Assembly: GCA_025726505.1 (NCBI GenBank)
Contig: GCA_025726505.1_4340.1
DNA: 42,918 nt
From: a phage
Strand: one strand, 5' to 3'
The first letter of the stretch is position 1, and each line of letters opens with the position of its first letter. The notes under the pieces were generated by a model. That model saw only the letters and a program-made list of their open reading frames with translations. It ran no database searches and was not told the DNA's origin. Positions 3,150-40,321 of this stretch are shown piece after piece. The position numbers and the translations under genes were made by a program.

Positions 3150-3180
3150 CTTCTCTCTCTCCTCTCGCTTCGATAACTGA

Positions 3181-3209
3181 ATAGTATTCTATTATATCTG
3201 TGTGTGCAA
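3181..3209 (-). promoter_or_regulatory. Promoter-like element copy A (TTGCAC-N17-TACTAT with internal AATAG-N4-CTATT)
   Basis: Minus strand reads TTGCAC (3209-3204), 17-nt spacer, TACTAT (3186-3181); near-identical to copies at 4359-4387, 25820-25848 and 35100-35128. Confidence 0.5.
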
Positions 3210-7826: not shown

Positions 7827-7856
7827 TTGACAACATGAATAGTTAGCTATTATAGT
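7827..7856 (+). promoter_or_regulatory. Sigma70-like promoter with overlapping palindromic operator
   Basis: TTGACA (7827-7832), 18-nt spacer, TATAGT (7851-7856); spacer contains AATAGTTAGCTATT (7838-7851); 32 nt upstream of ATG 7888. Confidence 0.55.
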
Positions 7857-10170: not shown

Positions 10171-10199
10171 TTGACACCTGAATAGTTAACTATTATAGT
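10171..10199 (+). promoter_or_regulatory. Sigma70-like promoter with perfect palindromic operator
   Basis: TTGACA (10171-10176), 17-nt spacer, TATAGT (10194-10199); spacer contains perfect 14-bp palindrome AATAGTTAACTATT (10181-10194). Confidence 0.6.
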
Positions 10200-13575: not shown

Positions 13576-13886
13576 CCCCGGAAGGAAAAATACAGAAATA
13601 CGCAAAAGAGCGATTCGAGGCCATCGGGGGCCTCGTCCGTAAACTGTCTTATGAGGGGCGCTCCGGCGCTCCCGACCTGCTGGTAATTCTCCCGGGCGGC
13701 ATCGTCTGGTTCGTCGAGGTGAAGAAAGACGAAAGCACGAAGCCTGACCCACACCAGTTACGAGAGCATGAGCGGATGCGTAAACGTGGCGCAAATGTTT
13801 TTGTCGTTGGTTCGATAAAACAGATTGACACCCTAATAGCAGACTATTATAGTAAGCACATACCCCAACAATATAAGGAATTATAA
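13572..13886 (+). CDS. VRR-NUC domain nuclease
   Basis: PD-(D/E)xK core GAPDLLVILPGGIVWFVEVKK...REHERMRKRGANVFVV; start at ATG 13572 (track start 13557). Confidence 0.75.
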   Translation: MTPEGKIQKYAKERFEAIGGLVRKLSYEGRSGAPDLLVILPGGIVWFVEVKKDESTKPDPHQLREHERMRKRGANVFVVGSIKQIDTLIADYYSKHIPQQYKEL

Positions 13887-15928: not shown

Positions 15929-15933
15929 AGAAA

Positions 15934-15951
15934 AGGCCCCGAAAGGGGCCT
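15934..15951. terminator. Bidirectional terminator at strand switch
   Basis: AGGCCCC-GAAA-GGGGCCT; U-rich flank on both strands; sits between rightward operon end and tailspike stop (15957). Confidence 0.7.
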
Positions 15952-15956
15952 TAGTT

Positions 15957-17786
15957 TTACATAACAACCGCAGCAGATATGTACCCAGAATCTTGATACG
16001 CCCCGGAAAGGTCGAAAACTTCAATGTTAAAAGAACCTGCGGACGTACTTACTACATTAATTACTAATTTCCCTCCGCCTGTGGTATTACCAACGCTGCA
16101 TGAAACAGCGTACGCGGAAGAGGGTAAAGCATTAGATAGGTTGATGGTATATTTACCGGTCCCGGTTTTAGATACGGTTGCTCCGTCTGCATACACTAAC
16201 GACCCTGAAATTCCGTTAAATTGAATCATTGCCCGTGTACATGCACTCGACCTTTTTGCGACGGTAGTCCCGATAAATGCGTATTCTTGGGCCTTGTTAA
16301 TATAAATCTTATTAACAGAAGTGTCAGGTACTTGTAAGACGTTGTCTATAACAACATTACAGTGTTTCGCGCCTGATACGGTAGAGCATCTATCTATCTC
16401 ATAATTGTCGATATTAATCGCCCTTACAAAACCTACACCCCCAAACGCGGACCAGTTTTGTTTAACAAGAACACCGGAAACACCGGACAAGAAAATAAGA
16501 TCGCCTGTCGTATCTTTACTAAACGTGTTGTTAGTTATCGAAACCGCGGAAGAACGCGGAGAGAGAACATCATCGGTAACATATACCCTTGCTAAAGCGG
16601 AAGCTGTATTCTCTTCGAAATAGTTACCATCTACCAGTAACTGCTGAGCACCCCCGGCGACGACACCTACGTCATAGCCAGTGTTTGCTTCGAATAGAGA
16701 ATCTCTAACTATGAAATTTCGTACACTACTTGCGGAACCTGAGTCTCCGATAAGAACACCGTTAACACCATCAAAGAAAGTGCAATTATCAACTTTAACT
16801 ACGTTGATATCTACCTTTGACGTTTTTATGCCGTTTGTGCATTTAGAGAAATAGCACGAAGTTAGCTCAGCTACCCCGGAAAAATAGTCTGGGGTGTCGT
16901 AATGTAAATAAACACCGTACCGAGCGTTTCTGACAACGCAATCTTGAAGTTTTAGGTACCAAGCCCCGCCGAAATCAAAACCATCAGACGATGAGTCCTG
17001 AATATCCAAGAAAAGTCCAGAAATCTTAGCTCCTATCGCACCACCTTGAACCCGAATGGCAGGTGATGCTGACCCGGTAAACTTAATTACTGAACCTGTT
17101 GTTTGGTCGTTAACGTGCCCAAAATTATTACCAGCGATACATAGACTATCAGTAGCCGTTATCGCTAAAGTAGAACTTATAAGATAGACACCATCTGGTA
17201 TGTATAAACTCTTTTTAGAATCTATTGCTGCCTGAAATGCGGAGGTGTCATCGGCTACGCCGTCGCCCACGGCCCCGAAATCTTTAACGGATACTAAATC
17301 TTGGTTCTTACCGTGCTGGGTCCGCCCTACTGCGCCCACTAAAGGGGACTTAACCGCTACTAAAGCATCACCTAAATTGACACTAGAGCTATCACCCAGT
17401 TCATCCCTTAAATTAGGGTCAGTTTGCGGCGTCCAGTCCGCGTTGCCTACTGGGTTAAAACTTGCTGGAACCGTAACAGGCAGAACACCGGCGTACGAGT
17501 ACCATGTTTTGCCAACCGGGTCGTAGACAACTTTGTCGCGGTCATTAACAGTTAACGTACCGCCGGTAGAGAAGTCCCACGACACAGGAGAAAACCCAGC
17601 GTCACGTAACACCGCCGGGAGCGTCTTCTGTGTCTGTCCTGTAACCTGGTTTGTTGCGTAATCAATATCAGCGCCACCTGCGACACCACCAGATTTACCG
17701 GTGATAACTTCAGCTTCAAAAATTTGGTGTTTCTTGGCGGTTTGTAAATCCGCCAGGCTTAAAACGTCACCGCATCCGCTTGACAT
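15957..17786 (-). CDS. Tailspike / tail fibre (receptor-binding) protein, possibly beta-helical
   Basis: 609-aa last gene of the late operon; Gly/Asn/Ser/Thr-rich central and C-terminal region; beta-helix and depolymerase role are inferred from composition only. Confidence 0.5.
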   Translation of the reverse strand: MSSGCGDVLSLADLQTAKKHQIFEAEVITGKSGGVAGGADIDYATNQVTGQTQKTLPAVLRDAGFSPVSWDFSTGGTLTVNDRDKVVYDPVGKTWYSYAGVLPVTVPASFNPVGNADWTPQTDPNLRDELGDSSSVNLGDALVAVKSPLVGAVGRTQHGKNQDLVSVKDFGAVGDGVADDTSAFQAAIDSKKSLYIPDGVYLISSTLAITATDSLCIAGNNFGHVNDQTTGSVIKFTGSASPAIRVQGGAIGAKISGLFLDIQDSSSDGFDFGGAWYLKLQDCVVRNARYGVYLHYDTPDYFSGVAELTSCYFSKCTNGIKTSKVDINVVKVDNCTFFDGVNGVLIGDSGSASSVRNFIVRDSLFEANTGYDVGVVAGGAQQLLVDGNYFEENTASALARVYVTDDVLSPRSSAVSITNNTFSKDTTGDLIFLSGVSGVLVKQNWSAFGGVGFVRAINIDNYEIDRCSTVSGAKHCNVVIDNVLQVPDTSVNKIYINKAQEYAFIGTTVAKRSSACTRAMIQFNGISGSLVYADGATVSKTGTGKYTINLSNALPSSAYAVSCSVGNTTGGGKLVINVVSTSAGSFNIEVFDLSGAYQDSGYISAAVVM

Positions 17787-21228: not shown

Positions 21229-22629
21229 TTAGCCGTCCACATTAAAATCAATACGAGTGATATATTTACTACCCCACGCAGAATCGGCCTGAGGGATAGT
21301 CGCGTAATCATCTACAGCCTGAACGTTTATCACGGAGCCGTCGGAATAGGTGATGTCGATACTTGTCGCGCCGTTCATTACTACTTTTGCCGATGCCGCT
21401 GGGCGTGTTACAGGAGACGCCGACGTAATTATTGGTGATGTTGTATTTTGGTTTACCTCTACAGTAGCCGCGGATAATTTAATCCCTGAAACGCCATCCC
21501 CCGTAAATGACCCGGTAACTCCGTCTGAATATATCCATGCGTCCATCCGTATTCTCATTGTTTTATCTTCTGTTGCGGTGATTGTCTCCGATATTCGTAA
21601 CCACCCTCCGCCTACGTCGGTTACATCTGTACCGCCTGGGCCGGAATAAATGCTACCATCCCGCAAATCAACAACTGCTGAGCCTAATACTGTAGGAAGT
21701 TCTCGCACGTATATCCGTATGAAATTGTATCCGTTTGCCTTTGCGAAGAAACTAAAAGTCACCTTGTCGCCAACACCAACGCTAACATCTACAGTCTGGT
21801 TTATTAGGTGGTTACCTCTTGCGTCGGTAGCAGTTACGTCGTACGTGTCAGCGGCTGTTAAAACACCTGTTTCAGATACTGATACACTCACCAAACCTTT
21901 GTTCCAGTTTGAAGAAGAGAAATTGCTTGAATATAGGAATCTGTTAGTTACTGACACCTCTGGCGGCACACGCCCGACCGCAACACCATCAATGAACGTA
22001 AGAGGCCATTCATTGGCGGCGGACCGCACAAGATTGCCATTTCGGTTGATGTAGTAAACCTGTGGCCCGTCGTACACAATACGGCTATCAAGCGTGGATG
22101 ACAGCATGTTAATTGGCGGGTATCCTGCAGGCCCTTCATTGCTCCAGATGCGCGGGAACGTCGTATCGTAGTTCGCGTATATTTTCAGGAAACTACCCAG
22201 ACAATCCCCGTAACAACCATACAAATCTGGCAGATTGTTAATCAGGCACTGGTTCTCAAGGTCCTGGAACGGTGATTTCTCGGCGGTTGCCGTGAAAGTA
22301 ATAGTCCAGTTAATGCCGTCTTCGGTGGACTCGGCGATGGTGGACGTGATTGTTACCTGATAATCTTCAATACCCATGCCGAAGTCGTGCGCCATCCAGA
22401 AACTTGACGCACCGCCGTCTACTTTTTCAAGGAACGATAGAAACGCCTGCCGCCCCATTGCGGATGTAATCAGGGTTACGCTCACCGGAAACACGTCGTA
22501 ATACGTGTCGCGGCCCTGACGTACGCCGCCGCCAGCTAAATCTACACTCCAGACGTTGTTACGTCTGGTCATTGAGTAGCCTTTCGACACCACCGGCTTA
22601 AGGCTACGTGGAAAGTATAAGTCAGTCAT
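21229..22629 (-). CDS. Minor tail / distal tail protein
   Basis: 466-aa ORF directly after tape measure gene; 1-nt stop/start overlap. Confidence 0.5.
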   Translation of the reverse strand: MTDLYFPRSLKPVVSKGYSMTRRNNVWSVDLAGGGVRQGRDTYYDVFPVSVTLITSAMGRQAFLSFLEKVDGGASSFWMAHDFGMGIEDYQVTITSTIAESTEDGINWTITFTATAEKSPFQDLENQCLINNLPDLYGCYGDCLGSFLKIYANYDTTFPRIWSNEGPAGYPPINMLSSTLDSRIVYDGPQVYYINRNGNLVRSAANEWPLTFIDGVAVGRVPPEVSVTNRFLYSSNFSSSNWNKGLVSVSVSETGVLTAADTYDVTATDARGNHLINQTVDVSVGVGDKVTFSFFAKANGYNFIRIYVRELPTVLGSAVVDLRDGSIYSGPGGTDVTDVGGGWLRISETITATEDKTMRIRMDAWIYSDGVTGSFTGDGVSGIKLSAATVEVNQNTTSPIITSASPVTRPAASAKVVMNGATSIDITYSDGSVINVQAVDDYATIPQADSAWGSKYITRIDFNVDG

Positions 22630-24941
22630 TATTTGAACCCCGGCGCGTTTCTTGTGGCCTTGCGGGCCTTGCTAATCTTACTGTTACTGTTCTGCAAAGA
22701 TGCAGCCACCTGCTCCTCGATGATGATACGCAAACGGCCTTCATCATCCTGCTCGGTGGATACGTTGCCAATCTGACTCGATGTATTATTTACAATGGTA
22801 ACGTTAGATGGGCCGGAAGAAGACCCGTTTTGCCCCATAATTTCTTTCATCTGCTGTGCGGTGCGTACACGTGACGCACCAGCGGGCATGATAACTTCTG
22901 GTTTACCACGTTCAGCGATGGTGGAAGCCTGCCCGGCTGATAACTGTCCGCCCTGTTCACGTGCGGACCTGATAGCGGAAATCTGCGCCATACCCGCCCC
23001 AACGGCAGCGGCGGCAGCTACAGGAGCCAGGAACGGACCAACTACAGGGATAGCCGCTGTGGACTTGTACGCCTCGATAGCCGCGGTGTACGTGGCGATA
23101 GTGGCCTGTACGATAGCGAATGCCTTATACGCGCCAGAAGCCTCGCCCAAAGCCGAACCGATGTTTGAAGCCATGTTACCGAAGGCGGTTGCCGTTGCGT
23201 CGGCACGCTTCGTAGCATACTGCTCATTGATGGCGTTAAGCGCCGCCTGGTACTGCTTCTCACTAATAAGCCCCTGCTCACGGTACTTATCCGCTACCTC
23301 CAGTTTCTGCTGTTCCTGGATGTCGAGAAGCTCAAGCTCAGTAGCGTTCTGACCCATAATCTGTGCCATGAAGTCCTCGCCTTTCTGCTGCTTTTCCTGC
23401 TGCTCTTTTCTTTTCTTATCCAGTTCTTCCTGTCTGGCCTGCTCGGCTGTGAGCATAATTTGAGTTTTGGCGTTTTCATACTGCTGCTGGCTTATCGTTC
23501 CGGCGCGGTTGAACTCCTCCAGTTTCGCCAGTTTCTGTTCTTCCGCAGCGGTAATGCGCGAAATCTCATCTCCGGTTGTGCGGTCGACAGTAGCCAGGAA
23601 ATCTTCCGCCGCTTTTTTCTGTCGTTCAGCCGCCGTTTCTTCGCGTTTGGCTTGTGCCGCCAGCCGTTTCTCGTTCGATTTGGCCTCGCGGTCGGCCTTC
23701 GCTTTTTCGGTAGCGTCGATGCGAGCGATGTCTTGTTGTGCTTCCGTGTCACGCGCAGCATTATACGCGGCGATCTGTTCTTTGGTGACAGCTTCACGTT
23801 TAGCGAACGCCTGCTTATCCAGTTCAGCTTGCGCACGGATACGCTCGCGGTCACTTAAGATAGCGATTTGCTGGTTTTTGACGATAGCTTCGTTCTGTTC
23901 CTGGAATCTCTGCGTTGTTGAGTTGACGTTACGACCAAGATTCTTTTGGGCCTCCGCCGCCGCGTTTGCGGACTTCTCCGCGTTCTCCAGTGCCGTGGCG
24001 TTCTTGTTGGCATTGTCGGTCAGGCGGATAAGTTCCGGGTTCAACTGTTTTGTATTACCGAGCCAGTCGGTAAACACATCGGCGATGCGACGGGCATTCT
24101 CGGCGGTTGGCTCTTTGTTAAACGCACTCTGCGCCGCTATCATTTCCAGCGCCTGGTCACGGTTAACCCCAAACTTACTGCTAAGCTCTGCGATATTCTG
24201 CGCCAGCATGTTGACGCCTACGATGTTACCCTCGTAAGTGCCACCGAGTTTTTCTAACGTGTCGCCTACATCCGCACCTTTAGAGACCAATGCATCGTAC
24301 TGGCTGATAGCTGATGCTGTGGATGCCTTCCATGTCTCCCATGATTCTGCGTCCTCACGAACAGCTTTAGCTGTTTGCTGTGCGATAAGGTCCGCGTTAG
24401 CCTTAGCCAGCGCAAGCTGAGTCTCCGCCGCTTCTCTGCTGATTTGGGTAAGCTGGATAAGGCCGTCTGTCAGTTCGAGAGAGCCGGACGCCGTTTGCTG
24501 GAAAGTATCTTTTAGCTGTTTCTGTGCGGCTTCGAGGTCTTTTGAACTGCCTTCTGCTTCGGTTAACGATTTATACAGGACACCACCGATTGCTGACGCA
24601 AGAGCAATTACGGCCCCAAGCACCGCGCCACCAGGGCCGAAAGCACCCGCAAGCTGAGAGCCTTGTTGCCCGATTGCTACGAATGCAGACGTGCCGGACT
24701 GCAACTGGACGACCATGTCCTGCACCTGGAAGCCTACCTGCCCGGCGGCGTTACGGAATTTAGCGAAACCGTCAGAAGCCGCTTTAGACGTAGCGGAGTT
24801 TACTTTATTAACATCCGGCGTTAGTTTGTTTACGGATGTGTCCGCACGGTCTGCGGATGCCGCCATAGCGTCAAGCTGTTTAGCGGCTACATCAGCGCCT
24901 TCTGTTTTTACTCTGGCAATTAGGGAAGCCGTATCAGCCAT
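22629..24941 (-). CDS. Tail tape measure protein
   Basis: 770-aa Ala/Gln/Glu/Lys-rich coiled-coil protein with Gly/Ala hydrophobic segment (AFGPGGAVLGAVIALASAIGG); start ATG 24941 with GAGGG RBS. Confidence 0.85.
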   Translation of the reverse strand: MADTASLIARVKTEGADVAAKQLDAMAASADRADTSVNKLTPDVNKVNSATSKAASDGFAKFRNAAGQVGFQVQDMVVQLQSGTSAFVAIGQQGSQLAGAFGPGGAVLGAVIALASAIGGVLYKSLTEAEGSSKDLEAAQKQLKDTFQQTASGSLELTDGLIQLTQISREAAETQLALAKANADLIAQQTAKAVREDAESWETWKASTASAISQYDALVSKGADVGDTLEKLGGTYEGNIVGVNMLAQNIAELSSKFGVNRDQALEMIAAQSAFNKEPTAENARRIADVFTDWLGNTKQLNPELIRLTDNANKNATALENAEKSANAAAEAQKNLGRNVNSTTQRFQEQNEAIVKNQQIAILSDRERIRAQAELDKQAFAKREAVTKEQIAAYNAARDTEAQQDIARIDATEKAKADREAKSNEKRLAAQAKREETAAERQKKAAEDFLATVDRTTGDEISRITAAEEQKLAKLEEFNRAGTISQQQYENAKTQIMLTAEQARQEELDKKRKEQQEKQQKGEDFMAQIMGQNATELELLDIQEQQKLEVADKYREQGLISEKQYQAALNAINEQYATKRADATATAFGNMASNIGSALGEASGAYKAFAIVQATIATYTAAIEAYKSTAAIPVVGPFLAPVAAAAAVGAGMAQISAIRSAREQGGQLSAGQASTIAERGKPEVIMPAGASRVRTAQQMKEIMGQNGSSSGPSNVTIVNNTSSQIGNVSTEQDDEGRLRIIIEEQVAASLQNSNSKISKARKATRNAPGFK

Positions 24942-25314
24942 CTTCTCTGCCCTCAAATATTCCGTCTAAGCCCATGATAACCTCGGCTTCGAACAAACTT
25001 ATGCCGTAACCGGCGACATCACGAAACGCTACCAAATCTTGCCATTTGAGCGCATCGCGCGGGATTATAACGATAGTATCATCTGTTTCGCGCTGTAGGA
25101 ATTTAATGGCACGGTATTTCTCGAACACGTCGATAAGAGAAACGGGGCATTCCGGCCCCGTCGCTTCTTTCATCTGCGGTTCTTTAATCACGCCCATTGC
25201 AATCAAAGCCGCCTGGTGGCCCGCCGCGATGTCGTCGAATTGCTTACGTTTGTGGCGGTCGACAAAGCACCATTGCGCAAATTCATACAGCGCTTTTACT
25301 TTTCCGAGAGTTTC
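24934..25314 (-). CDS. Tail assembly chaperone T-frame extension (probable G-T fusion by -1 frameshift)
   Basis: Frame -1 relative to chaperone G is open from 25314 to 24934; G and T frames overlap 19 nt containing GGAAAAG (25305-25299). Confidence 0.45.
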   Translation of the reverse strand, partial: ETLGKVKALYEFAQWCFVDRHKRKQFDDIAAGHQAALIAMGVIKEPQMKEATGPECPVSLIDVFEKYRAIKFLQRETDDTIVIIPRDALKWQDLVAFRDVAGYGISLFEAEVIMGLDGIFEGREDG

Positions 25315-25712
25315 TCACGGCTATCGGTGTGATGCTTAACTACGGCCTCTGCCAACCCACTGTACTGGTCGAACAGGTTAGCAAGCGCCTCTTTGCTGAA
25401 TGGTTCGTCGAATGACCAACCGGTGACGATTTCCACGGCAAGCTGCTTGTTCAGGTCCATCACCCGCCAGCCCTTCTCATCATTATAGCGCGCCCAGTTA
25501 TTCAGCGCCTCGCACTCTTTATCTAATGGCGCAAGTTCTTCCGTAAGGCGTCGAATTGCCGTTGTGTAGGCACGGCCCGCACGAACACCAGCGTCACAAT
25601 CGGGGCCGATGACCTGCAACCATTCACCGGAATCTTTACCACTGGGCAGAAGGATAGGCATTTTAGTACCGGCGGCGTGGCGGTCGGCAAAATAGAAATC
25701 AGAAAGTTTCAT
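25296..25712 (-). CDS. Tail assembly chaperone (lambda G-like)
   Basis: 138-aa ORF immediately upstream of tape measure gene; slippery heptamer at its 3' end. Confidence 0.6.
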   Translation of the reverse strand: MKLSDFYFADRHAAGTKMPILLPSGKDSGEWLQVIGPDCDAGVRAGRAYTTAIRRLTEELAPLDKECEALNNWARYNDEKGWRVMDLNKQLAVEIVTGWSFDEPFSKEALANLFDQYSGLAEAVVKHHTDSREKLSEK

Positions 25713-25819
25713 TCTTTAGTCCTTTGGTTAAGAGGTTACTGGTTATGGTTAATGCGCCAGGCGGGAACCACCCGCTTTTCGTGTGCGACACTAGGCGCAA
25801 ACTTATTCTAGCACACTAC

Positions 25820-25848
25820 TTGCACACCCCAATATAATAGGGTACTAT
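25820..25848 (+). promoter_or_regulatory. Promoter-like element copy E (TTGCAC-N17-TACTAT)
   Basis: TTGCAC (25820-25825), spacer ACCCCAATATAATAGGG, TACTAT (25843-25848); 28 nt upstream of ATG 25877. Confidence 0.55.
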
Positions 25849-25876
25849 TCACATGTAACTTACTGAGGAAATAATT

Positions 25877-26203
25877 ATGCGTAAATTAGTACTAGCTCTG
25901 GGTTTTATGTCTTTTGCTACTTTTGGGTCTCCGTGCGAACAGGTATTTAGTGAATCTGTTCTTATGACTTCTGGTGTGCTCGAGAAAGCCGACCCTACTA
26001 TTGTAAAGGCGTTCAAGGACTCTACAGTTCGCGAGTGTGAGGCCGCCGTGGAGGTTGGTAAATCGGGCCTACCCCCGCAGGCCGTAACCTACACAGTGAT
26101 ACGTTCGGTAGAGAAAAACGGAGATGCTTTCTATAGCCTACTGACAGCCACCCGTCTGCAAATGGTAATGACAGGGTGGGCGATAGGCGCAGAAAGTAAA
26201 TAG
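25877..26203 (+). CDS. Small secreted/periplasmic protein (signal peptide)
   Basis: 108-aa product with N-terminus MRKLVLALGFMSFATFGSPC; two Cys; GAGGAA RBS. Confidence 0.6.
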   Translation: MRKLVLALGFMSFATFGSPCEQVFSESVLMTSGVLEKADPTIVKAFKDSTVRECEAAVEVGKSGLPPQAVTYTVIRSVEKNGDAFYSLLTATRLQMVMTGWAIGAESK

Positions 26204-26268
26204 TCGCCTTTATTTAAAGGAATGCACTGTGGTTAAATAGGACAAATCCTAAACACGAGGAAGTAAGC

Positions 26269-27399
26269 ATGGCCCAGAAGAAAATAACCGACGAACAGTT
26301 ACAGGAAGAATTGAACGCCGGGATGAAGATTATTGATATCGCCCGTAAATACGGCATCTCAGACCGCGTTATTCGTATCCGTAAAGCGAAGCTGGCTAAG
26401 AAAGGTGTAGGCCACGGGCGCGACGTTAGTCACCTTGTGCCGGACGGCTACAAGATTAAAGGCACGTCGTCCCTGGTGGACGAGTTCGGCAACACTAAGT
26501 TGCAATGGGTTAAGACTGACACCGATGCTGAACGTCAGGTCGAGTTGATGAAAGCCGTAATTGAAGGCATGAAGTCAGAGATTACACCTGTTGCGCCGGT
26601 TAAAGCCGTTCGCACCAAACGCGACGACAAGCTGCTCAACCTTTACACCGTGTCAGATTTCCATCTCGGTATGCTGGCATGGGCCGACGAGAGCGGCGAC
26701 GACTGGGATATGAAGATTGCGGAAGGCCTGTTCTCTCGATGGTTCGACGCGGCGTTTCAGAAAGCGCCGGACGCGGGAACAGGTGTTATTAACCTGCTAG
26801 GTGACCTTGCGCACTTCGATAGTCTGGTTGCCGTTACACCCGCAAGCGGTCACGCCCTTGACGCCGACACCCGTTATCAGAAACTTGTCCGTTACATGAT
26901 TCGTATGGTCCGCCGTGTCGTTGATATGGCGTTGGTTAAGCATAAAAATGTTCGCTTGCTTATCGTGCAAGGGAATCACGACGAATCGGGTATGATTTGG
27001 TTGGCTGAGATGTTCAGTACGCTGTACGACAATGAGCCGCGCGTGTTCGTCGATACGTCGCCGGATGTTTACAAGATGGTGCAACACGGCAAAACTACGC
27101 TGTTCTTCCATCACGGGCATAAAGCACGATTCGACGCTATCGAGCCTGTGATGATTGCCAAGTTCCGCAAAGCGTTCGGCGAGAGCGTCTATAGTTACGC
27201 ACATGTAGGACACCTTCACCACCAGAAGATTGTTGAAAGCCGTAATATGGTTGTCGAACAACATCGCACCCTGGCGGCTAAAGACGCCTACGCCTCCCGA
27301 GGCGGCTGGATGTCAGGTCGTAGTGCAAATGTAATTACTTATAGCGCCGAATACGGCGAGGTCGCACGTTTAACTATTTCACCGGAGATGCTGGGATGA
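26269..27399 (+). CDS. HTH-domain fused to calcineurin-like metallophosphoesterase
   Basis: N-terminal HTH (IIDIARKYGISDRVIRIRKAK) then phosphoesterase motifs SDFHLG, GDLAHFD, QGNHDE, FFHHGH, HVGHLHH; GAGGAAG RBS. Confidence 0.75.
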   Translation: MAQKKITDEQLQEELNAGMKIIDIARKYGISDRVIRIRKAKLAKKGVGHGRDVSHLVPDGYKIKGTSSLVDEFGNTKLQWVKTDTDAERQVELMKAVIEGMKSEITPVAPVKAVRTKRDDKLLNLYTVSDFHLGMLAWADESGDDWDMKIAEGLFSRWFDAAFQKAPDAGTGVINLLGDLAHFDSLVAVTPASGHALDADTRYQKLVRYMIRMVRRVVDMALVKHKNVRLLIVQGNHDESGMIWLAEMFSTLYDNEPRVFVDTSPDVYKMVQHGKTTLFFHHGHKARFDAIEPVMIAKFRKAFGESVYSYAHVGHLHHQKIVESRNMVVEQHRTLAAKDAYASRGGWMSGRSANVITYSAEYGEVARLTISPEMLG

Positions 27400-27629
27400 T
27401 TAAAGCCTTGTGGATTTTCGTCATAATGCCGATTGTTATTTTACTGGTTTTATCTATCGCGGTGATAGGCATGGCGACGGTCTTAACCTTTATCTCTATG
27501 GATTTGTCCGTGTTCTCTGGCCTGTACGAAGCTGTTACTGCGATAGCGCCGACCGCGATGCGTCTTTTATATGTAGGTGCTGTTGCTATTTCGGCAGTTA
27601 TCGTTCTGATTGATGAGAGCTATTTATGA
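27396..27629 (+). CDS. Small polytopic membrane protein
   Basis: 77-aa product, almost entirely hydrophobic; ATGA-coupled on both sides. Confidence 0.6.
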   Translation: MIKALWIFVIMPIVILLVLSIAVIGMATVLTFISMDLSVFSGLYEAVTAIAPTAMRLLYVGAVAISAVIVLIDESYL

Positions 27630-27856
27630 CTTCAAAATACGACCGAACTATGACAAACACCCACGGCAGTACAATGACTGTTGATGTCTACGATGTGCTC
27701 CGCGCTTTCGACATCCGCGACCCGGCGTTACAGCACGCATTGAAAAAGCTGTTGTGTATGGGGCTACGCGGACACAAAGACACAGGTACAGACTTAGACG
27801 AGGCAATAGAAAGTCTGGAGAAGTTACGGGAATACCGGAGTAATATTGATGAGTGA
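27626..27856 (+). CDS. Hypothetical protein
   Basis: 76-aa ORF, ATGA overlap with membrane protein gene. Confidence 0.5.
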   Translation: MTSKYDRTMTNTHGSTMTVDVYDVLRAFDIRDPALQHALKKLLCMGLRGHKDTGTDLDEAIESLEKLREYRSNIDE

Positions 27857-28025
27857 GACCGTAATGAAAACAATATACGTAATCCGTGTATATGACGAAG
27901 AATGGGATGAGTGGGTTGACATCTACGCCGTTGGGAGTAAGGAAGAAGCGTCAAAAGAAATGACGGAAAGAAGTGACCGAGGTCAGTTAACTAACTTCTA
28001 TGAAATGCCATTCAAAAGTGAATAA
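27849..28025 (+). CDS. Candidate 58-aa hypothetical protein
   Basis: ATG 27849 overlaps upstream stop; ends 6 nt before the bidirectional terminator. Confidence 0.35.
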   Translation: MSETVMKTIYVIRVYDEEWDEWVDIYAVGSKEEASKEMTERSDRGQLTNFYEMPFKSE

Positions 28026-28031
28026 GAAAAA

Positions 28032-28047
28032 GGCCCCGAGAGGGGCC
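28032..28047. terminator. Bidirectional terminator at strand switch
   Basis: GGCCCC-GAGA-GGGGCC, nearly identical to the 15934-15951 hairpin; between island end and tail tube stop (28054). Confidence 0.7.
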
Positions 28048-28053
28048 TTAGTT

Positions 28054-29220
28054 TTATGCGTAACTAATACGTTGAATTACGATAGACGACTGGTACTGGT
28101 TGCCGGTAGCCTGACCTTCAATGGACTGAGTGATTGATTCCGGGCCAGATATTTCTGGCGTAACAGCCGTAAGCTCTGCGCGTTTCAGGCTGAAAGACAT
28201 AGCCCCGTTTACCCCCGCCAGAATAGAGTTAATCTCTACCTGCTGCTCGTTGATAAACTTCTGAATCATCGCCATGTCATACAGCTTACCGGAGATAGAG
28301 AACGTGTTAGCTGCGCGGCTACGTTCCACAAACGCTACGTTAGTGTTACCAAGTTCGAACTGTGCGGACGCGCTGTTATCGTTGGTGATGGTCAGACTGT
28401 CGCAACGCAACGGCGTAGAGCCATCAAACACAGAAACGTCAACCGAGGAGAATGGCTCATCACCAAACGTGACAGAGGAGAAGTTGGAACCAGACGGTGG
28501 CGTAGTAAGAATCTCCTGGCTACGTCCGATGAATGGGAAGCTGCCGGTCACCATAGCGTTAACTGCCTGCTCAATAGTGAAACCAGAAACTTCCACGCCT
28601 TTGGTTAACGTGTACGCGTTAGTACCGCCGCACTGGCCTTTGTACCAGGTAAGGATAGAGAACGTCTTACACGCGTTACCGGTTTCCAGCGTGTCGCCGG
28701 TTTTAGCCTTACTAGTTTTTGTCTCGGTGGTCAGGGTGTGTTGGATGCCCGCACCAGTAACAACCGTAGCCGTTACTGCAGTAACAATAAATGGTTTTGC
28801 GTTATCGCCTGTTAAATCGGTAAATGCAATCAGGTCGCCTACCCCAACTCCGTCAGTGATAAAACTGCCGGTAGCGCGTGTGAACGTCTTGCCCGCCGGT
28901 GCGACCGTAATCGACAGACTGGACAGGGAAACACCGGATTGCCACGTAGAGCCTAAAGCACCAGCCAGCCAGTCATCCTGGCTTTTCGAGCTAAGCTCGA
29001 TCGCGTATTCACCGCTAACCTGTTTGTTACCGGTGCGGATGGATGTAGTTTCACGGCTGCCGTCCAGTTCGTTGGATGTCAGCGTGTCGCGGGTGATAGC
29101 AGGGACACCGCCAGTGTTACGCAACGGTGACCAGACCGGGTTAGTCGGTGTTACGCCCGGGGTGACTTCCGCCACATAGAATTGCGCGGTATTCGCGCCC
29201 TTAAAAGGAGTTGTAGCCAT
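28054..29220 (-). CDS. Major tail (tube) protein
   Basis: 388-aa Thr/Ser/Gly-rich protein between neck genes and tail chaperone; ATG 29220 with AAGAGG RBS (track GTG 29226). Confidence 0.6.
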   Translation of the reverse strand: MATTPFKGANTAQFYVAEVTPGVTPTNPVWSPLRNTGGVPAITRDTLTSNELDGSRETTSIRTGNKQVSGEYAIELSSKSQDDWLAGALGSTWQSGVSLSSLSITVAPAGKTFTRATGSFITDGVGVGDLIAFTDLTGDNAKPFIVTAVTATVVTGAGIQHTLTTETKTSKAKTGDTLETGNACKTFSILTWYKGQCGGTNAYTLTKGVEVSGFTIEQAVNAMVTGSFPFIGRSQEILTTPPSGSNFSSVTFGDEPFSSVDVSVFDGSTPLRCDSLTITNDNSASAQFELGNTNVAFVERSRAANTFSISGKLYDMAMIQKFINEQQVEINSILAGVNGAMSFSLKRAELTAVTPEISGPESITQSIEGQATGNQYQSSIVIQRISYA

Positions 29221-29222
29221 AT

Positions 29223-29639
29223 TCACAGCCTCTTGGTGAATGCAATAAAGTTAATTGACAATGGTCGTTTGGCCCATCCGTTTTCTACAATCAGCGGCCC
29301 CAGGCTAACCGATTGAACCTCGGCGCAGATGTCGTTACGCGAAAATGACTTACCTGCTTTAAACGCCGTGTTAAGTAAGTCTGCCATTTTATTGATTGGC
29401 GCGCTACCTTTCACCGATGCGTAGTTAATGTCGACCTGATAAACACCTGAGCGTTGTTCCGTGAAGAACAAATCCGCCTGCTCGGTATCTGCCAGCAACA
29501 TGTAACTTGCCAGATACGGCGTATCGGTTGACGTCGGCGCGTCGATGTTTTCAAGCGCAACCTTGATGCTGTTTGCAGCCCCGAATGCTACCAGCGGCAC
29601 ATCGAACGCTTTTGTTAAGTCCTCAAAGTAGCCCATCAT
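29223..29639 (-). CDS. Tail terminator / neck protein (positional)
   Basis: 138-aa ORF directly upstream of tail tube gene. Confidence 0.45.
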   Translation of the reverse strand: MMGYFEDLTKAFDVPLVAFGAANSIKVALENIDAPTSTDTPYLASYMLLADTEQADLFFTEQRSGVYQVDINYASVKGSAPINKMADLLNTAFKAGKSFSRNDICAEVQSVSLGPLIVENGWAKRPLSINFIAFTKRL

Positions 29640-34284: not shown

Positions 34285-34548
34285 CTATTCCAGAATATTC
34301 CTCACGTAATCCTGCAACATGAATACTTTCAGTCTCAGTTGCCGTACGCATTCGGCGTTCTGAACGTCGATAGCTAAATCCTCGTCAGCGTCGCTACTTG
34401 GCGCCGCCAGCTTGCACGGCGGCTGCATCGTCATCGTATCCGGGGATGGAATTGGCGTTTGTGACGGCACGGGACTTGAGCAGGACGCGAGCATCGTCGA
34501 AAGTGCACACGCTGCGGTCAGGCGTTTTAATGTACTTAACGACTTCAC
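34285..34548 (-). CDS. o-spanin (Rz1-like outer-membrane lipoprotein)
   Basis: Signal peptide with lipobox LASC, Pro-rich mature region (SSPVPSQTPIPSPD...QPPC); overlaps the i-spanin gene out of frame. Confidence 0.55.
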   Translation of the reverse strand: MKSLSTLKRLTAACALSTMLASCSSPVPSQTPIPSPDTMTMQPPCKLAAPSSDADEDLAIDVQNAECVRQLRLKVFMLQDYVRNILE

Positions 34549-34780
34549 GGGTAATTACCTCAGATTTCGTCTTGCCTTCGTTGTCAGCGGCTGCGGCCTT
34601 CGATTCATCCTGCTGCTGCCGTTGTGTTTTCTTCGCTAACTCAGCCTGTGCTTTCTGCTGTTGCTGCGAAACGAGATTCGCCCGGCCCTCATTCCAGCCA
34701 CTGCGGTACTGGTAGATGCCGTGTGCGTAAGCCAGGATGATGAAACATGCTCCCGCTACGACAGTTGCTTTAAGATTCAT
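34394..34780 (-). CDS. i-spanin (Rz-like)
   Basis: 128-aa product with N-terminal TM anchor (VVAGACFIILAYAHGIY) then charged helical region (QQQKAQAELAKKTQRQQQDE). Confidence 0.55.
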   Translation of the reverse strand: MNLKATVVAGACFIILAYAHGIYQYRSGWNEGRANLVSQQQQKAQAELAKKTQRQQQDESKAAAADNEGKTKSEVITREVVKYIKTPDRSVCTFDDARVLLKSRAVTNANSIPGYDDDAAAVQAGGAK

Positions 34781-35099: not shown

Positions 35100-35128
35100 T
35101 TGCAGACACCAATATAATAGGGTACTAT
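35100..35128 (+). promoter_or_regulatory. Promoter-like element copy F (TTGCAG-N17-TACTAT)
   Basis: TTGCAG (35100-35105), spacer ACACCAATATAATAGGG, TACTAT (35123-35128); 27 nt upstream of ATG 35156. Confidence 0.55.
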
Positions 35129-35155
35129 TCAGTTAACTTAAACAGGAGATGAAAA

Positions 35156-35971
35156 ATGAAACATGTAATCAGTTTTTCAGGCGGCAGAACATCAGCGTAC
35201 ACAACCCTTGAAGTGCTTAAACTTCACCCGGATGCTGAGGTTATTTATATGGATACCGGGGCGGAGCACCCAAAGACCTACGAGTTCATCCGTAATTTTG
35301 CTAAGCACTTTAATATTACGGTGACGTGCCTGCGGGTTGTTCCTAACCCAGAAATGCGTAAGGCCAGTACCTATGAAGTCCTTAGCGTAGATGAAATAGG
35401 TCCTGACCTGGAGCCGTGGCGCAGAATGCTGCGCAAGTACGGTCACCCATACGTCGGCGGCGCGTTCTGCACAGACCGGATGAAGACGGTGCCGTTCACC
35501 AAATACTGCGACGAGAAATACGGCAAAGGAAATTATGAGCGCTGGTTGGGAATTCGCTGTGACGAGCCAAAACGACTTGGCAACCGTGGACCGGGATTCC
35601 ATTACCTTGCAGACATTAGCGACTTCGAAAAGCAAGACATACTCGAGTGGTGGTCGCAACAATCATTCGACCTTGGCATTGAAGAACACTTAGGTAACTG
35701 CGTATTTTGCATCAAGAAGAGTTTACAGAAGGTTGCACTAGCGGCGAAAGACGAGCCACAACTCGCAGCGGAGTTCTGGCAGATGATTCAGGACGAAGAT
35801 AAAAAGGACGACAAGGTAATGTACCGTTCGAACCGGAGCCTTGGCGAGGTCATCGCTTTGTTTGGCAGTGAAGACCGCGCAGAACTTGCGGTCCGTATGC
35901 GCTCAATGCGGCAGTACGACACAGGGTCATGTAGTGAAAGTTGTGAGGCATTTTCTTCCGAAGAATACTAA
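35156..35971 (+). CDS. PAPS reductase-family PP-loop enzyme
   Basis: N-terminal PP-loop HVISFSGGRTSAY; C-terminal Cys motifs GNCVFC and GSCSESC; single opposite-strand gene inside the head module. Confidence 0.75.
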   Translation: MKHVISFSGGRTSAYTTLEVLKLHPDAEVIYMDTGAEHPKTYEFIRNFAKHFNITVTCLRVVPNPEMRKASTYEVLSVDEIGPDLEPWRRMLRKYGHPYVGGAFCTDRMKTVPFTKYCDEKYGKGNYERWLGIRCDEPKRLGNRGPGFHYLADISDFEKQDILEWWSQQSFDLGIEEHLGNCVFCIKKSLQKVALAAKDEPQLAAEFWQMIQDEDKKDDKVMYRSNRSLGEVIALFGSEDRAELAVRMRSMRQYDTGSCSESCEAFSSEEY

Positions 35972-35994
35972 ACTTCGTTAAAGAAATAAAACTA

Positions 35995-36013
35995 AGGCCC
36001 CATAACGGGGCCT
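35995..36013. terminator. Bidirectional terminator after the PAPS-reductase-like gene
   Basis: AGGCCCC-ATAAC-GGGGCCT followed by TTTTATCATT. Confidence 0.7.
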
Positions 36014-36017
36014 TTTA

Positions 36018-36479
36018 TCATTCTGGCTTAGTAACCTTCGCCGCTTTACTTACCGCCTCTACGCCATCGGCATCGGTAACTTTCACGAAGTAATCACCCA
36101 CCGCGTTGACCGTCAGAGACAAAGCCTCTTCCGGCGCGTTAACCACTTCCTTTCCGTCTTTAAACCAGGTAAGAGAGTACGGTGCTTTGCCCGCCTTAAC
36201 CTCGACAGTGATAGTTGCGCTGCCGTCCGCCAGTTCAGTGTCTTTCGGTTGCACAGAGAAATACACATCGCCAGCGTCCGCCAGATACGGAATCTCGTAA
36301 AGCATGCCCGCCGCAGGTAGCGCAATACCGGTTTTATCCGCAAACGGCATATCGTCTACCGGTGTGCCTAGTACACTTTCGTCCCCAACAGACACCACGT
36401 TCTCACCGGAGCCAGACACGCGAGCAAACTGGACTACGCGACGCGACGGTACATCAGTTACTTTGAAAAAGCCCATCAT
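36018..36479 (-). CDS. Ig-like domain protein (second decoration-type protein)
   Basis: 153-aa product with KAPYSLTWFKDGKEV...GDYFVKVTD, paralogous to the Ig-like motif at 31736-32077. Confidence 0.55.
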   Translation of the reverse strand: MMGFFKVTDVPSRRVVQFARVSGSGENVVSVGDESVLGTPVDDMPFADKTGIALPAAGMLYEIPYLADAGDVYFSVQPKDTELADGSATITVEVKAGKAPYSLTWFKDGKEVVNAPEEALSLTVNAVGDYFVKVTDADGVEAVSKAAKVTKPE

Positions 36480-39085: not shown

Positions 39086-40321
39086 TTAAAGTGCGAAACG
39101 AACTGGGGTATTGATAACAGGGCGGACAACAGGGAACAACCTATGCATACAATAACCTAAACTGTCGTTCCAGTCGTCAATAGCCGGGTGGGTTTTAAAC
39201 TTCTCCGGTTCACCGTTATCGTTATACCCCTGCGTCTCCAGTGACTGCGTTAATTTAGGGCATTTTGAAGTGTTAACCTTCAAACGGCTATGTGACAAAA
39301 GAGCGTTAACCGCGTTTATTCGGTCTTTAACGAATGGGTTCTTACTTGGAGCGTTAACACGCAAGCCAGCCTTTTCTATGATACCTATGTCGGATAATGA
39401 TGCATTAGTGTGACCTGAGCGGCCTGATGCGTCGGGGTAAACCGTAACCGTATGGCCCGGATACCGTATCCTGACATTATTGACGAAGTCGTCGGTATTA
39501 TGGCTGACAAACTCATCAACAACCGTCGGGTTGCCGTCTTCGATAACGCTCACGGTGGCGCAACAGCCACCGATGTTAAAGTCCAACCCTATGTGCAGAG
39601 CGTCTCCGTTCTGCAAGGTGCGAGTGGAGTCATGGGTGCTTCGTTTGAAATAGTGATACACCTTATTGGCCGTCAAACTGACAAATTCACCGTTGATATA
39701 CATATCGGCCAAAGCCGCGTCGTAGTTCCTGCGTATCTGTTCGACGTAGCCATCAGGTAAATAGGGGTTAGACAACGTAGACGCCTTAATCAGTTCCGTA
39801 GAACTGTCAGCGTTAGTAACCCAATAGTCATACACAAATCCAGAGAATCCCTGGTCAGGTGTGGTCACAGCAGCAATGCTGTTACCCCCTCTGCAAGGCT
39901 GTCGGGTACGCTCTGAAATTTTACGCCACACCAGAGACGCCTGTTCTTTAGTAAGAACGTCAAGTTCATCGGCTACAGAATGGGCTACTTCAAAAGCGAT
40001 TAGACGGTTCGGGTTGTCGTATGACCTGAAAAACATAGTGCCGTACCCCTTAACATGGATACTGTATTCTGATTTGTTGAGGTCATACTTAAGCCCCATC
40101 ATGTTCAGGTCATCAACCACACCAGGGATGGCGCGCAGCTTCAACAGGTCATACGTAGGCATGGTGTACAGGGTGTTTATCCCGCGCTCGCGCAACATGA
40201 GATACAGGAGACGCATAGTGGCCGCGCGGGACTTGCCCGCCCCCAGTCCCGCGACAATAGCTGGATGTGTCTTTGTACTGAACACAAAGTCCTGTTGTGG
40301 TTCGGTTAATGGGATATCCAT
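39086..40321 (-). CDS. Terminase large subunit
   Basis: N-terminal Walker A VAGLGAGKS; 411 aa; followed by portal gene. Confidence 0.85.
   Translation of the reverse strand: MDIPLTEPQQDFVFSTKTHPAIVAGLGAGKSRAATMRLLYLMLRERGINTLYTMPTYDLLKLRAIPGVVDDLNMMGLKYDLNKSEYSIHVKGYGTMFFRSYDNPNRLIAFEVAHSVADELDVLTKEQASLVWRKISERTRQPCRGGNSIAAVTTPDQGFSGFVYDYWVTNADSSTELIKASTLSNPYLPDGYVEQIRRNYDAALADMYINGEFVSLTANKVYHYFKRSTHDSTRTLQNGDALHIGLDFNIGGCCATVSVIEDGNPTVVDEFVSHNTDDFVNNVRIRYPGHTVTVYPDASGRSGHTNASLSDIGIIEKAGLRVNAPSKNPFVKDRINAVNALLSHSRLKVNTSKCPKLTQSLETQGYNDNGEPEKFKTHPAIDDWNDSLGYCMHRLFPVVRPVINTPVRFAL

Follow-up and report, generated by a model that had tools for sequence, protein, structure and literature searches.

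The window, by which we mean the whole stretch of 42,918 nucleotides that was analyzed (contig GCA_025726505.1_4340.1), is a Kagunavirus genome (Guernseyvirinae) in which five plus-strand open reading frames (ORFs; 25877-28025) lie antisense to the late operon, between the tail chaperone gene (25296-25712, minus strand; Phage_TAC_4, E 1e-8) and the tail tube gene (28054-29226, minus strand; Phage_tube_2, E 2e-36). The ORF coordinates and flanking families bear out a previous sequence-only reading of this DNA, which had described a five-gene opposite-strand island within the tail module. From left to right, the plus strand carries ORF1 (25877-26203), encoding a probably secreted protein of 108 aa with two conserved cysteines and occupying what is here called slot 1; ORF2 (26269-27399), encoding a 376-aa HTH-metallophosphoesterase; ORF3 (27396-27629), encoding a hydrophobic membrane protein of 77 aa; ORF4 (27626-27856), encoding a soluble protein of 76 aa that is the commonest partner of the phosphoesterase; and ORF5 (27846/27849-28025), encoding an acidic protein of 59/58 aa whose start is most likely the ATG at 27849 (58 aa). 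ORF3 and ORF5 are rare accessory genes.

Ribosome-binding sites of the GGAG/GAGGA type were found at all five ORFs. The suggestion that all the genes are ATGA-coupled holds for the ORF2/ORF3 (27396) and ORF3/ORF4 (27626) junctions, which are true ATGA overlaps, but not for ORF4/ORF5, which overlap by 8 nt, nor for ORF1 and ORF2, which are separated by 65 nt. In 64 of 78 relatives, stop codons interrupt an antisense ORF of 155 aa within the phosphoesterase gene (26797-27264, minus strand), which, therefore, was not considered a gene. Altogether, the data support the island as a self-contained, non-structural transcription unit opposing the late operon.

The left edge of the island is marked by a part of the tail operon, an int-alpA-like structured RNA (25749-25801, minus strand) in the leader of the chaperone gene. 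Rfam RF02996 matched positions 25737-25801 with 35.8 bits, equal to the gathering score (36.6 bits in the relative L017), and a scan of the whole window at the gathering threshold did not list this hit. In a counted alignment, 94.8% of the cells were paired (31-58% in slid controls) and four pairs changed on both sides, with covariation exceeding that of shuffled and slid controls. The element is single-copy, with no second copy elsewhere in the genome, and it also occurs in 13 of 30 relatives without the island. The island sits antisense at a natural break of the tail operon, past the terminator of the tube gene and ahead of the structured leader RNA of the chaperone gene.

Transcriptional Signals of the Island

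The promoter copy that had been proposed for the island was confirmed as a predicted element, a 29-mer (TTGCAC-17-TACTAT; 25820-25848, plus strand) present three times in the genome (4359-4387 on the minus strand, and from 25820 and 35100 on the plus strand) against a chance expectation of 0. Conservation among the copies runs from the -35 hexamer to near +1 and is limited to that stretch. Measured against the sigma-70 consensus, the 29-mer agrees at just 7 of 12 positions, and it is absent from the list of a consensus scan; an alternative promoter from that scan (25848-25875) was rejected, as its transcript would begin within the start codon of ORF1. Overlapping the -10 element is the palindrome AATAG-N4-CTATT (25836-25849), a presumed operator with seven sites in the window compared to 0.05 expected; all seven fall either in repeated promoter-like elements or in the early control region. 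The relative Bas71 likewise has seven sites, and in each of the six Guernseyvirinae loci that were checked the palindrome lies upstream of the island. Binding of this palindrome by the HTH of the phosphoesterase was considered and discarded, given that a Drexlerviridae genome, by its family a probable carrier of a homologue (the 378-aa GP44), has a single site, which is within chance.

On the right, a two-way intrinsic terminator (28030-28049) shared with the tail tube gene has an 8-bp stem with six G-C pairs and T-runs on both strands; it scores on both strands, in agreement with the bidirectional terminator first placed at 28032-28047. Near-identical copies occur at 15931-15959 and 35994-36014. 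Besides the island, these promoter and terminator elements serve the early small-gene operon, the PAPS-reductase cassette, and the helicase/tailspike junction and, as judged from the sequence, are the standard punctuation of this phage rather than signs of foreign origin.

The island would fire from one of the three phage promoter copies, and because its promoter shares the AATAG-N4-CTATT operator with the promoters of replication genes, its expression probably goes with that of the early and replication genes and not with that of the tail genes. RNA-seq data from Kagunavirus K1B4 point in the same direction, since in a coarse time course the slot-1 gene grouped with methylase and polymerase genes and not with the adjacent tail genes (PMC12645636).

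The HTH-Metallophosphoesterase

The sequence of ORF2 indicates a complete binuclear metallophosphoesterase with an HTH fused at its N-terminus, in line with the fusion that had been proposed from the motifs alone. All five motifs are present, namely DFH (residues 130-132), GDLAH (178-182), GNHDE (235-239), HHGH (281-284), and GHLHH (314-318), and the catalytic residues D130/H132, D179/H182, N236-H237-D238, H281-H284, and H315/H317 are invariant across 81 homologues with 40-99% identity. The protein comprises an HTH (aa 8-44; nt 26290-26400), a beta-hairpin plus helix (aa 61-104), and the catalytic domain (aa 119-376; nt 26623-27396), all encoded on the plus strand. Its N-terminus forms three helices with weak matches of the GerE/LuxR type, and homologues of ORF2 carry precomputed HTH Pfam domains.

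A Pfam search did match PF00149 and PF12850, but with scores under the gathering cut-offs (18.1 vs 21.5 and 20.3 vs 27 bits, respectively); this is a divergent subfamily, placed in the superfamily by its motifs and fold. ORF2 has the beta-sandwich metallophosphatase fold, onto which the motifs map, and Mre11 and SbcD are its best fold matches. Foldseek against PDB returned metallophosphoesterases only. In PHROG 704 ('DNA repair exonuclease'), residues 3-375 aligned with positions 1-389 of the 390 in the profile (E 5.1e-165). Searching PDB sequences with individual proteins and with profiles retrieved only weak HTH matches for ORF2 and none for ORF1 or ORF4, a BFVD fold search returned unnamed phage homologues only, and NCBIfam and PADLOC gave no match for any island protein.

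Mre11 and SbcD share with ORF2 the closest fold and the GDxxH version of motif II, the Mre11 form of this motif. However, identity is just 14-15%, a capping domain is not evident, and a Rad50/SbcC partner gene was found neither among the ORFs of the window nor in the annotated relative Bas71. Mre11, in turn, has neither an N-terminal HTH nor the conserved loops (aa 185-202 and 337-347) that are specific to this family. The lowest Foldseek E-values belonged to Rv0805, a cyclic-nucleotide phosphodiesterase, which favors a counter-defence role in which the enzyme would destroy the cyclic nucleotide or oligonucleotide signals of CBASS, Pycsar, type III CRISPR, or Thoeris. The other anti-competitor cargo of the island is in line with such a role, which we nevertheless regard as unlikely.

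Distribution and Genomic Neighborhood of the Phosphoesterase

Full-length homologues of ORF2 were found in 2041 phage records from several families, including Drexlerviridae, and a literature search covering Kagunavirus, Drexlerviridae, and T1 returned genome reports only, with no tested function for the family. The phosphoesterase occurs in 50/50 syntenic loci of Kagunavirus/Jerseyvirus relatives, a sample made up of relatives with this layout. Its G+C content (52.0%, GC3 59%) is close to that of the genome (51.0%), and recent acquisition of the gene as cargo is not supported by the sequence data.

In 17 of the 50 loci, genes for a phrog_415 HAD protein and then a phrog_139 dNMP kinase come after the phosphoesterase, and a HAD gene follows it in L073 as well. 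T5 Dmp (E 3.6e-57) belongs to the same PHROG as the HAD protein, the P-loop partner of the latter matches phrog_139 with an E-value of 3e-46, and because the HAD protein additionally matches PF25109, a polynucleotide-kinase phosphatase domain (E 7e-20), its substrate is ambiguous. In Erwinia phage phiEa100, the phosphoesterase-HAD-kinase trio adjoins exonuclease, endonuclease VII, and ligase genes, the ligase coming after the trio.

These neighbors bear on three views of the enzyme. Interference with host phospho-signalling, one of the functions first suggested for it, is not supported, since the nearest folds are Mre11 and SbcD and the recurrent neighbors are DNA and nucleotide enzymes, which argues for DNA as the substrate. 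The second view is a 2',3'-cyclic phosphodiesterase that heals RNA ends together with the HAD/kinase pair and a ligase, repairing tRNAs cut by host anticodon nucleases; metallophosphoesterase domains have this activity in the RNA-end healing of bacterial Pnkp. The PF25109 match and the ligase of phiEa100 speak for this role, but the P-loop partner belongs to a dNMP-kinase family and not to polynucleotide kinases, the PHROG of the HAD protein is shared with a T5 dNMP phosphatase, the window contains neither the HAD/kinase partners nor a ligase, and the HTH points to DNA, making RNA healing very unlikely. The third view, a recombination or repair nuclease acting on the DNA of the phage itself through Mre11/SbcD-like end-processing or hairpin-opening and sparing the host, would find partners in the PD-(D/E)XK exonuclease, gp2.5-like SSB, and junction resolvase of the phage. 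Against it stand the lack of a Rad50/SbcC-type partner, recurrent neighbors that are a dNMP kinase and a Dmp-like HAD protein rather than recombinases, and the position of the gene, which among the lineages checked lies apart from the replication module everywhere but in phiEa100; we consider own-DNA repair a possible role, though not a probable one.

The small soluble protein ORF4 aligns with phrog_2452 (E 3e-36) over the last ~70 aa at the C-terminus of that family and was detected in 774 phage records and in 30 of the 50 loci, never alongside the HAD and P-loop pair. ORF4 would fill the place that a Dmp-like HAD phosphatase and a dNMP kinase take in other relatives. Its identification as a DUF3310 or T7 gp1.7-like nucleotide kinase, based on one GenBank label and on inspection by eye, was rejected: no Pfam match was obtained at E <= 10, hhalign against T7 gp1.7 gave a probability of 0.7%, and 35 homologues carried no Pfam domain.

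Variability of the Island and the Moron Question

Comparison with relatives showed that the same five genes are not kept throughout and that the island is variable, as 27 architectures were observed around the phosphoesterase in the 50 loci and that of the window was seen once. In a second sample, of 70 relatives anchored on the tail tube gene, the phosphoesterase was absent from the tube/chaperone junction in 30, and the tube-chaperone gap was just 93-140 nt in five, indicating that the tail module works without the island. Additionally, three contigs carried the phosphoesterase cassette at a second antisense site, where the window has its PAPS-reductase cassette, which uses the promoter and terminator seen at the island.

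The rare genes lie downstream of the phosphoesterase. ORF3 was found in only eight phage records, among them Jerseyvirus SETP13, whose corresponding slot holds homologues of ~40% identity, and had no family match in Pfam, PHROG, NCBIfam, or PADLOC. Its sequence is strongly hydrophobic, as expected of the polytopic membrane protein proposed earlier, with a 19-residue Kyte-Doolittle maximum of 3.10 and two long hydrophobic stretches over most of the protein. ORF5 occurred in 23 phage records, only from Escherichia, Shigella, and Kagunavirus phages, and in 9 of the 50 loci. Both genes would be rare add-ons, and their G+C contents (43.2% for ORF3 and 40.1% for ORF5) fall within the lower range of the small island ORFs (40-49%).

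The earlier comparison of the island with a moron was partly sustained. Like morons and other accessory hotspots of late operons, it lies among structural genes as an autonomous unit with a promoter and terminator of its own, its content varies, and its small ORFs are lower in G+C. It differs in its use of the phage's own control elements, in its conserved anchor of native composition, and in the apparently virulent lifestyle of the phage; the annotation of Bas71 contains no integrase, and the classical sense of a moron as prophage-expressed cargo, therefore, does not apply. A stronger proposal would make all five genes together a moron of recent acquisition that acts mainly on the host envelope or signalling, and its own promoter and terminator, the composition of its small ORFs, and its absence from 30/70 relatives with the same tube gene could be taken to agree. 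However, other loci of this genome use the promoter and terminator as well, rarity is confined to ORF3 and ORF5, and the phosphoesterase is native in composition and fixed in the Kagunavirus/Jerseyvirus-type loci, so that recent acquisition of the entire block seems quite unlikely.

Alternation of ORF1 and Imm in Slot 1

ORF1 belongs to phrog_14165 (E 1e-55) and was found in 99 phage records, all of them from Salmonella, Escherichia, Shigella, or Kagunavirus phages, with a G+C content of 48.9%. The predicted signal peptide was recovered as an N-terminal MRK followed by a 13-residue hydrophobic run, too short to span a membrane, and the sequence suggests that ORF1 is probably a secreted, soluble protein. 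Across the 50 loci, slot 1 holds ORF1 in 15 and a T4 Imm-like protein (PF14373) in 34, and never both. The slot-1 protein of the relative Ivi matches PF14373 at about E 9e-14 (8.7e-14), whereas neither ORF1 nor ORF3 matched Pfam, Imm_superinfect (PF14373) included. ORF1 can thus be regarded as a positional alternative of Imm, as both use the same slot and the same promoter, although they share no sequence similarity and Imm is a membrane protein.

Superinfection exclusion, which had been listed among the candidate functions, can reasonably be proposed for slot 1, given that Imm replaces the 108-aa protein in 34/50 loci and the two are never found together; either protein would most likely exclude superinfecting phages at the envelope. 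Moreover, the choice of slot-1 gene co-segregates with the tape-measure/chaperone allele (15/15 for ORF1 and 34/34 for Imm), an association that could be simple physical linkage. An exclusion protein is known to target the tape measure (Bebeacua 2013, PMID 23692331, as cited in PMC3952083), and exclusion from slot 1 may be matched to the tape-measure type of the phage itself.

Discussion

The cassette itself is real and modular in its anatomy, fold, conservation, synteny, and linkage. We interpret it as a modular antisense unit in which an HTH-tethered, DNA-cutting phosphoesterase is combined with early expression and exclusion cargo, and we give this reading a probability of about 0.5. Its anchor would be a binuclear metallophosphoesterase with an intact Mre11/SbcD-type active site, probably a nuclease, held on DNA by the HTH and cutting it, while the surrounding genes would be exchangeable cargo. 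By analogy to T5 A1 and mycobacteriophage Gp48, the likeliest target would be the host chromosome, leading to host shut-down and nucleotide supply, with the processing of phage DNA ends as a close second.

T5 A1 is a predicted metallophosphatase that is essential and sufficient for digestion of host DNA, and it acts with the DNA-binding protein A2, in a pre-early region shared with dmp (bioRxiv 10.64898/2026.04.02.716235). Similarly to ORF2, A1 has all five motifs, works with a DNA-binding function, and has close by the genes for a HAD phosphatase of phrog_415 and a small membrane protein with two TM segments, and both proteins share the motif III extension NHDxxxSxWL. On the other hand, A1 has 556 aa and an unrelated N-terminal half, and the DNA-binding part is a separate protein in T5 but fused to the enzyme in ORF2. 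Specific homology could not be demonstrated beyond the extended motif III: hhalign of ORF2 with A1 gave a probability of 23% over 17 columns and hmmsearch 1.6 bits, and the HTH showed no similarity to A2. Another phage metallophosphoesterase, the early protein Gp48 of mycobacteriophage A10ZJ24, has phosphodiesterase activity and damages host DNA, thereby disabling host defences (PMC12287305). Gp48 comes from an unrelated phage group and host and, with its first catalytic Asp at residue 10, has no room for an N-terminal HTH. A bolder version of our interpretation, in which ORF2 would be a single-chain counterpart of A2 plus A1 that destroys the host chromosome, present in more than 2000 sequenced phages from several families, carried on a cassette moving between two antisense docking sites of the structural operon and accompanied by slot-1 exclusion specific to the tape-measure type of the phage itself, is tentative and less probable than the interpretation given above.

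The genes of the island are already deposited, loosely annotated, in hundreds of public records, and our results offer sharper questions rather than a new category. Among the enzymes of small coliphages and of Salmonella and Klebsiella phages that still await characterisation, the ORF2 family is one of the more widespread, and many of these phages are candidates for therapy. Besides, the two-site cassette with its reusable promoter and terminator represents a ready insertion platform for engineering 42-kb genomes, and two envelope proteins that strictly alternate according to the tape-measure allele provide a directly testable model of self-exclusion specificity in virulent siphoviruses. If the phosphoesterase does degrade host DNA, this would account for the shut-off of the host and the supply of nucleotides where a phage has no T4- or T5-type machinery, and it would bear on the risk of transduction.

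Results

Five plus-strand ORFs occupy 25877-28025 within the tail module, as a sequence-only reading had described. On one side is the tail assembly chaperone gene (25296-25712, minus strand; PF08748, and PF23812 for the frameshift partner), and on the other is the tail tube gene (28054-29226, minus strand; PF18906). Their putative promoter (a 29-mer at 25820-25848 with promoter-type conservation), a bidirectional terminator whose stem (28030-28049) scores on both strands, and the five phosphoesterase motifs of ORF2 (376 aa, 26269-27399) were likewise found, the motifs at the very positions first reported. That observation was confirmed except for the claim that all genes are ATGA-coupled, which was overstated: ATGA overlaps account for two of the four junctions, the others being an 8-nt overlap and a 65-nt gap. 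A ribosome-binding site precedes each of the five ORFs. An antisense 155-codon ORF inside the phosphoesterase gene (26797-27264, minus strand) is broken by stops in 64 of 78 relatives and is not a gene.

At the nucleotide level LM08P1, SZH-1, and other Kagunavirus genomes are about 91% identical to the island region, which matched 300 phage records, nearly all Escherichia and Salmonella phages. Gene order in the window is that of the annotated Kagunavirus Bas71, whose annotation is without an integrase; phages of this genus are small siphoviruses and require O-antigen or capsule on their hosts (PMC11990801).

Anchoring the comparison on the tube gene gave 70 evaluable loci in a sample that is not circular for the phosphoesterase, which lay antisense at the tube/chaperone junction in 40 of them, among which were all the loci whose tube protein was 88% identical or more. 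The other 30 loci (tube 64-77% identical) had no phosphoesterase there: the tube-chaperone gap was just 93-140 nt in five, the superinfection immunity-type protein (Imm) stood alone in one, four carried an ORF1 homologue, and the rest held other small antisense ORFs. The junction is a hotspot for insertions, and the tail module can therefore do without the island; in this respect the earlier view of a moron-like block is right. In three contigs (L047, L076, and L070) a phosphoesterase with 83-89% identity stands alone, its neighbours being the homologues of the genes at 34394-34780 and 36018-36479 in the window; this is exactly the site of the window's PAPS-reductase cassette, and the same terminator follows. 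Either of two antisense docking sites can thus take up the phosphoesterase, which behaves as a portable cassette. Recent foreign cargo, as the block had also been viewed, does not fit its composition, since the phosphoesterase is typical of the genome (52.0% G+C versus 51.0%; GC3 59%) and only ORF3 (43.2%) and ORF5 (40.1%) deviate among the island genes.

The 50 loci with a chaperone-island-tube layout, drawn from IMG/VR, GenBank, and the window, contain the phosphoesterase in 50/50 by construction and are circular for that gene, and they comprise 27 island arrangements, the window's order (ORF1-phosphoesterase-ORF3-ORF4-ORF5) occurring once. The first gene position encodes an Imm_superinfect protein in 34/50 loci (PF14373, E 9e-14) or a member of the ORF1 family in 15/50, never both. 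Downstream of the phosphoesterase lies either ORF4 (30/50) or a HAD protein with a P-loop protein (17/50), again never both, which suggests that ORF4 and a Dmp-like HAD phosphatase plus dNMP kinase may be alternatives; no sequence link between ORF4 and this pair was found. ORF4 (76 aa, 27626-27856) is small and soluble, has the conserved core KY...DVYDVL...QHALKK...GLRGHK, and corresponds to a domain at the C-terminal end of several larger PHROG families; a relationship to DUF3310 was tested and gained no support. Less common inserts were ORF5 (nine loci), an HNH endonuclease, an Ant-like protein, and a 66-aa protein (six each), and ORF3 (four), while the whole phage database held 8 records of ORF3, 23 of ORF5, 99 of ORF1, 381 of Imm, and 774 of ORF4.

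ORF1 (108 aa, 25877-26203) has a short hydrophobic N-terminus with small residues before a conserved Pro-Cys-Glu, and a Jerseyvirus homologue with 59% identity keeps both cysteines. Among near-identical Kagunaviruses, in which the phosphoesterase is 93-98%, the tube 88-98%, and the tail terminator 95-99% identical, two deep alleles of the tape-measure N-terminus and both chaperone parts (22629-25712, minus strand) track the type of the first island gene perfectly (loci L001-L078). The tape-measure N-terminus was 84-100% identical to that of the window in all 15 ORF1-type loci, and in all 34 Imm-type loci it had no match or was 44-49% identical; the tracking was seen in both genera. Genes right of the island promoter are uniform, and the mosaic boundary accordingly lies at that promoter. 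The tape measure is cited as the known target of the TP-J34 exclusion protein Ltp (Bebeacua 2013, cited in PMC3952083), and the pattern fits a first-gene product that would act in exclusion and be paired with the tape measure of its own phage; simple linkage between neighbouring genes fits the association as well.

The 29-mer occurs in three genomic copies against none expected by chance. When the three contexts were aligned, conservation ran from TTGCA to just beyond TACTAT, limits that match the expected promoter pattern; by our own count the element matches the sigma-70 consensus at only 7/12 positions, and a consensus promoter scan did not list it. The leftward copy at 4359 would drive a small-gene operon, and that at 35100-35131 (plus strand) a single PAPS-reductase-like gene (35156-35971, plus strand; PF01507), antisense to the late operon in the head gene block. 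This second antisense cassette (35100-36014, plus strand) has the same promoter and two-way terminator as the island, its terminator (35994-36014) being the same AAGGCCCC...GGGGCCTT element; a third terminator copy (15931-15959) closes the replication module. All three copies of this G+C-rich element (15931-15959, 28028-28056, and 35994-36014) lie at convergent gene junctions. The predicted promoter and terminator of the island are the phage's own control elements.

The palindrome AATAG-N4-CTATT lies in each of the three promoter copies and also in four sigma-70-like promoters within and beside the replication gene region (3170, 7828, 10171, and 13825). The seven window sites (3180, 4358, 7838, 10181, 13835, 25836, and 35116), against 0.05 expected, each fall in a repeated promoter-like element or early control region; Bas71 has seven sites too, and the palindrome lies upstream of the island in every Guernseyvirinae locus checked, regardless of the first gene. 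It is likely the operator of a phage regulator. The four sigma-70-like copies (3170-3198, 7828-7856, 10171-10199, and 13825-13853, plus strand) form a near-consensus family (TTGACA-17-TATAGT) with the palindrome 6 nt off its register in the island promoter. The Drexlerviridae genome phiA2-1 (L088) has a single site (39165-39178), and just downstream of it, in an early small-gene cluster, is an ORF4 homologue (39283-39513) wrongly labelled 'phosphodiesterase'. Since the palindrome is common to their promoters, the island appears to be wired into the regulatory circuit of the replication genes. Coarse RNA-seq of Kagunavirus K1B4 points the same way: its first island gene, 045, peaks with methylase and polymerase genes, and the adjacent chaperone/tail genes 046 and 050 belong to a different expression class (PMC12645636).

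At the left edge, the leader of the tail chaperone gene matches the int-alpA RNA (Rfam RF02996; 25737-25801, minus strand) with 35.8 bits, exactly the gathering score, and a relative gave 36.6 bits. The three-helix structure showed covariation, with 94.8% of cells paired and four pairs changing on both sides, compared with 31-58% in slid controls; as the counted G-U pairs would be C-A mismatches on the plus strand, the minus strand is probably the functional strand. Searches with a model made from 12 relatives gave one copy per genome and also recovered the RNA in 13 of 30 island-less relatives, in two of which it nearly fills the 93-140-nt tube-chaperone gap. Given this occurrence without the island, the predicted RNA belongs with the tail operon, and insertion of the island took place between the terminator of the tube gene and the chaperone leader. 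The RNA may serve as an attenuator, a processing site, or a stabiliser. An ORF of 30-37 codons (25724-25837, plus strand), which the Ivi and Bas71 records list as a hypothetical protein, overlaps the opposite-strand RNA and the promoter -35 region and is probably an annotation artefact rather than a gene.

Discussion

The full length of ORF2 is covered by a phrog_704 match (E 5e-165), and its Metallophos scores fall under the Pfam cut-offs. An alignment of 81 sequences (40-99% identity) was the input to a usable AlphaFold model (pLDDT 77.6), which predicts that a three-helix N-terminal domain (aa 8-44) and a beta-hairpin with a long helix (aa 61-104) precede the catalytic domain (aa 119-376). 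The alignment shows no variation at the metal ligands, nor at T190, P191, D198, D200, and R202, and D339 and R344, in two low-confidence loops that are presumably family-specific. The N-terminal domain has weak GerE/LuxR-type similarity, and homologues carry precomputed HTH Pfam domains.

The HAD neighbour found in 17 relatives belongs to phrog_415, which T5 Dmp, the dNMP 5'-phosphatase, matches over its full length (E 3.6e-57), and the P-loop neighbour is assigned to phrog_139 as a dNMP kinase. Phage phiEa100 has the same trio beside exonuclease, endonuclease VII, and ligase genes, and in L073 a HAD gene follows a 53%-identical phosphoesterase homologue. Dmp is encoded in the T5 pre-early region along with A2, which binds DNA, a membrane protein with two TM segments, and A1, a predicted metallophosphatase. 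Digestion of host DNA requires A1, which also suffices for it (bioRxiv 10.64898/2026.04.02.716235), and an early mycobacteriophage metallophosphoesterase harms host DNA (PMC12287305). A1 and ORF2 are alike in an extended motif III, beyond which homology could not be demonstrated.

From the HTH and Mre11-like active site, the co-regulation with replication genes, and the recurrent nucleotide-enzyme neighbours, we infer that the phosphoesterase is best read as a DNA-directed nuclease. Our first choice for its role, with a probability of about 0.4, would be to break down host DNA and so supply nucleotides. A role in processing the ends of the phage's own DNA comes second and is rather unlikely. 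Two results qualify the nuclease reading: the HAD neighbour also matches the polynucleotide-kinase phosphatase domain, and Rv0805-type cyclic-nucleotide phosphodiesterases were equally good Foldseek matches. The literature found on the family consisted of genome reports, with no functional test among them.

Of 50,697 phage records, 2041 contain a full-length ORF2 homologue, including Guernseyvirinae, Dhillonvirus, Drexlerviridae, the Erwinia Autographiviridae phage phiEa100, a Rhodobacter Casjensviridae phage, and Klebsiella, Vibrio, and Campylobacter phages. Overall, the island is an accessory cassette of modular build whose anchor is a conserved and widespread HTH-metallophosphoesterase; hundreds of public genomes already contain it under loose annotation.
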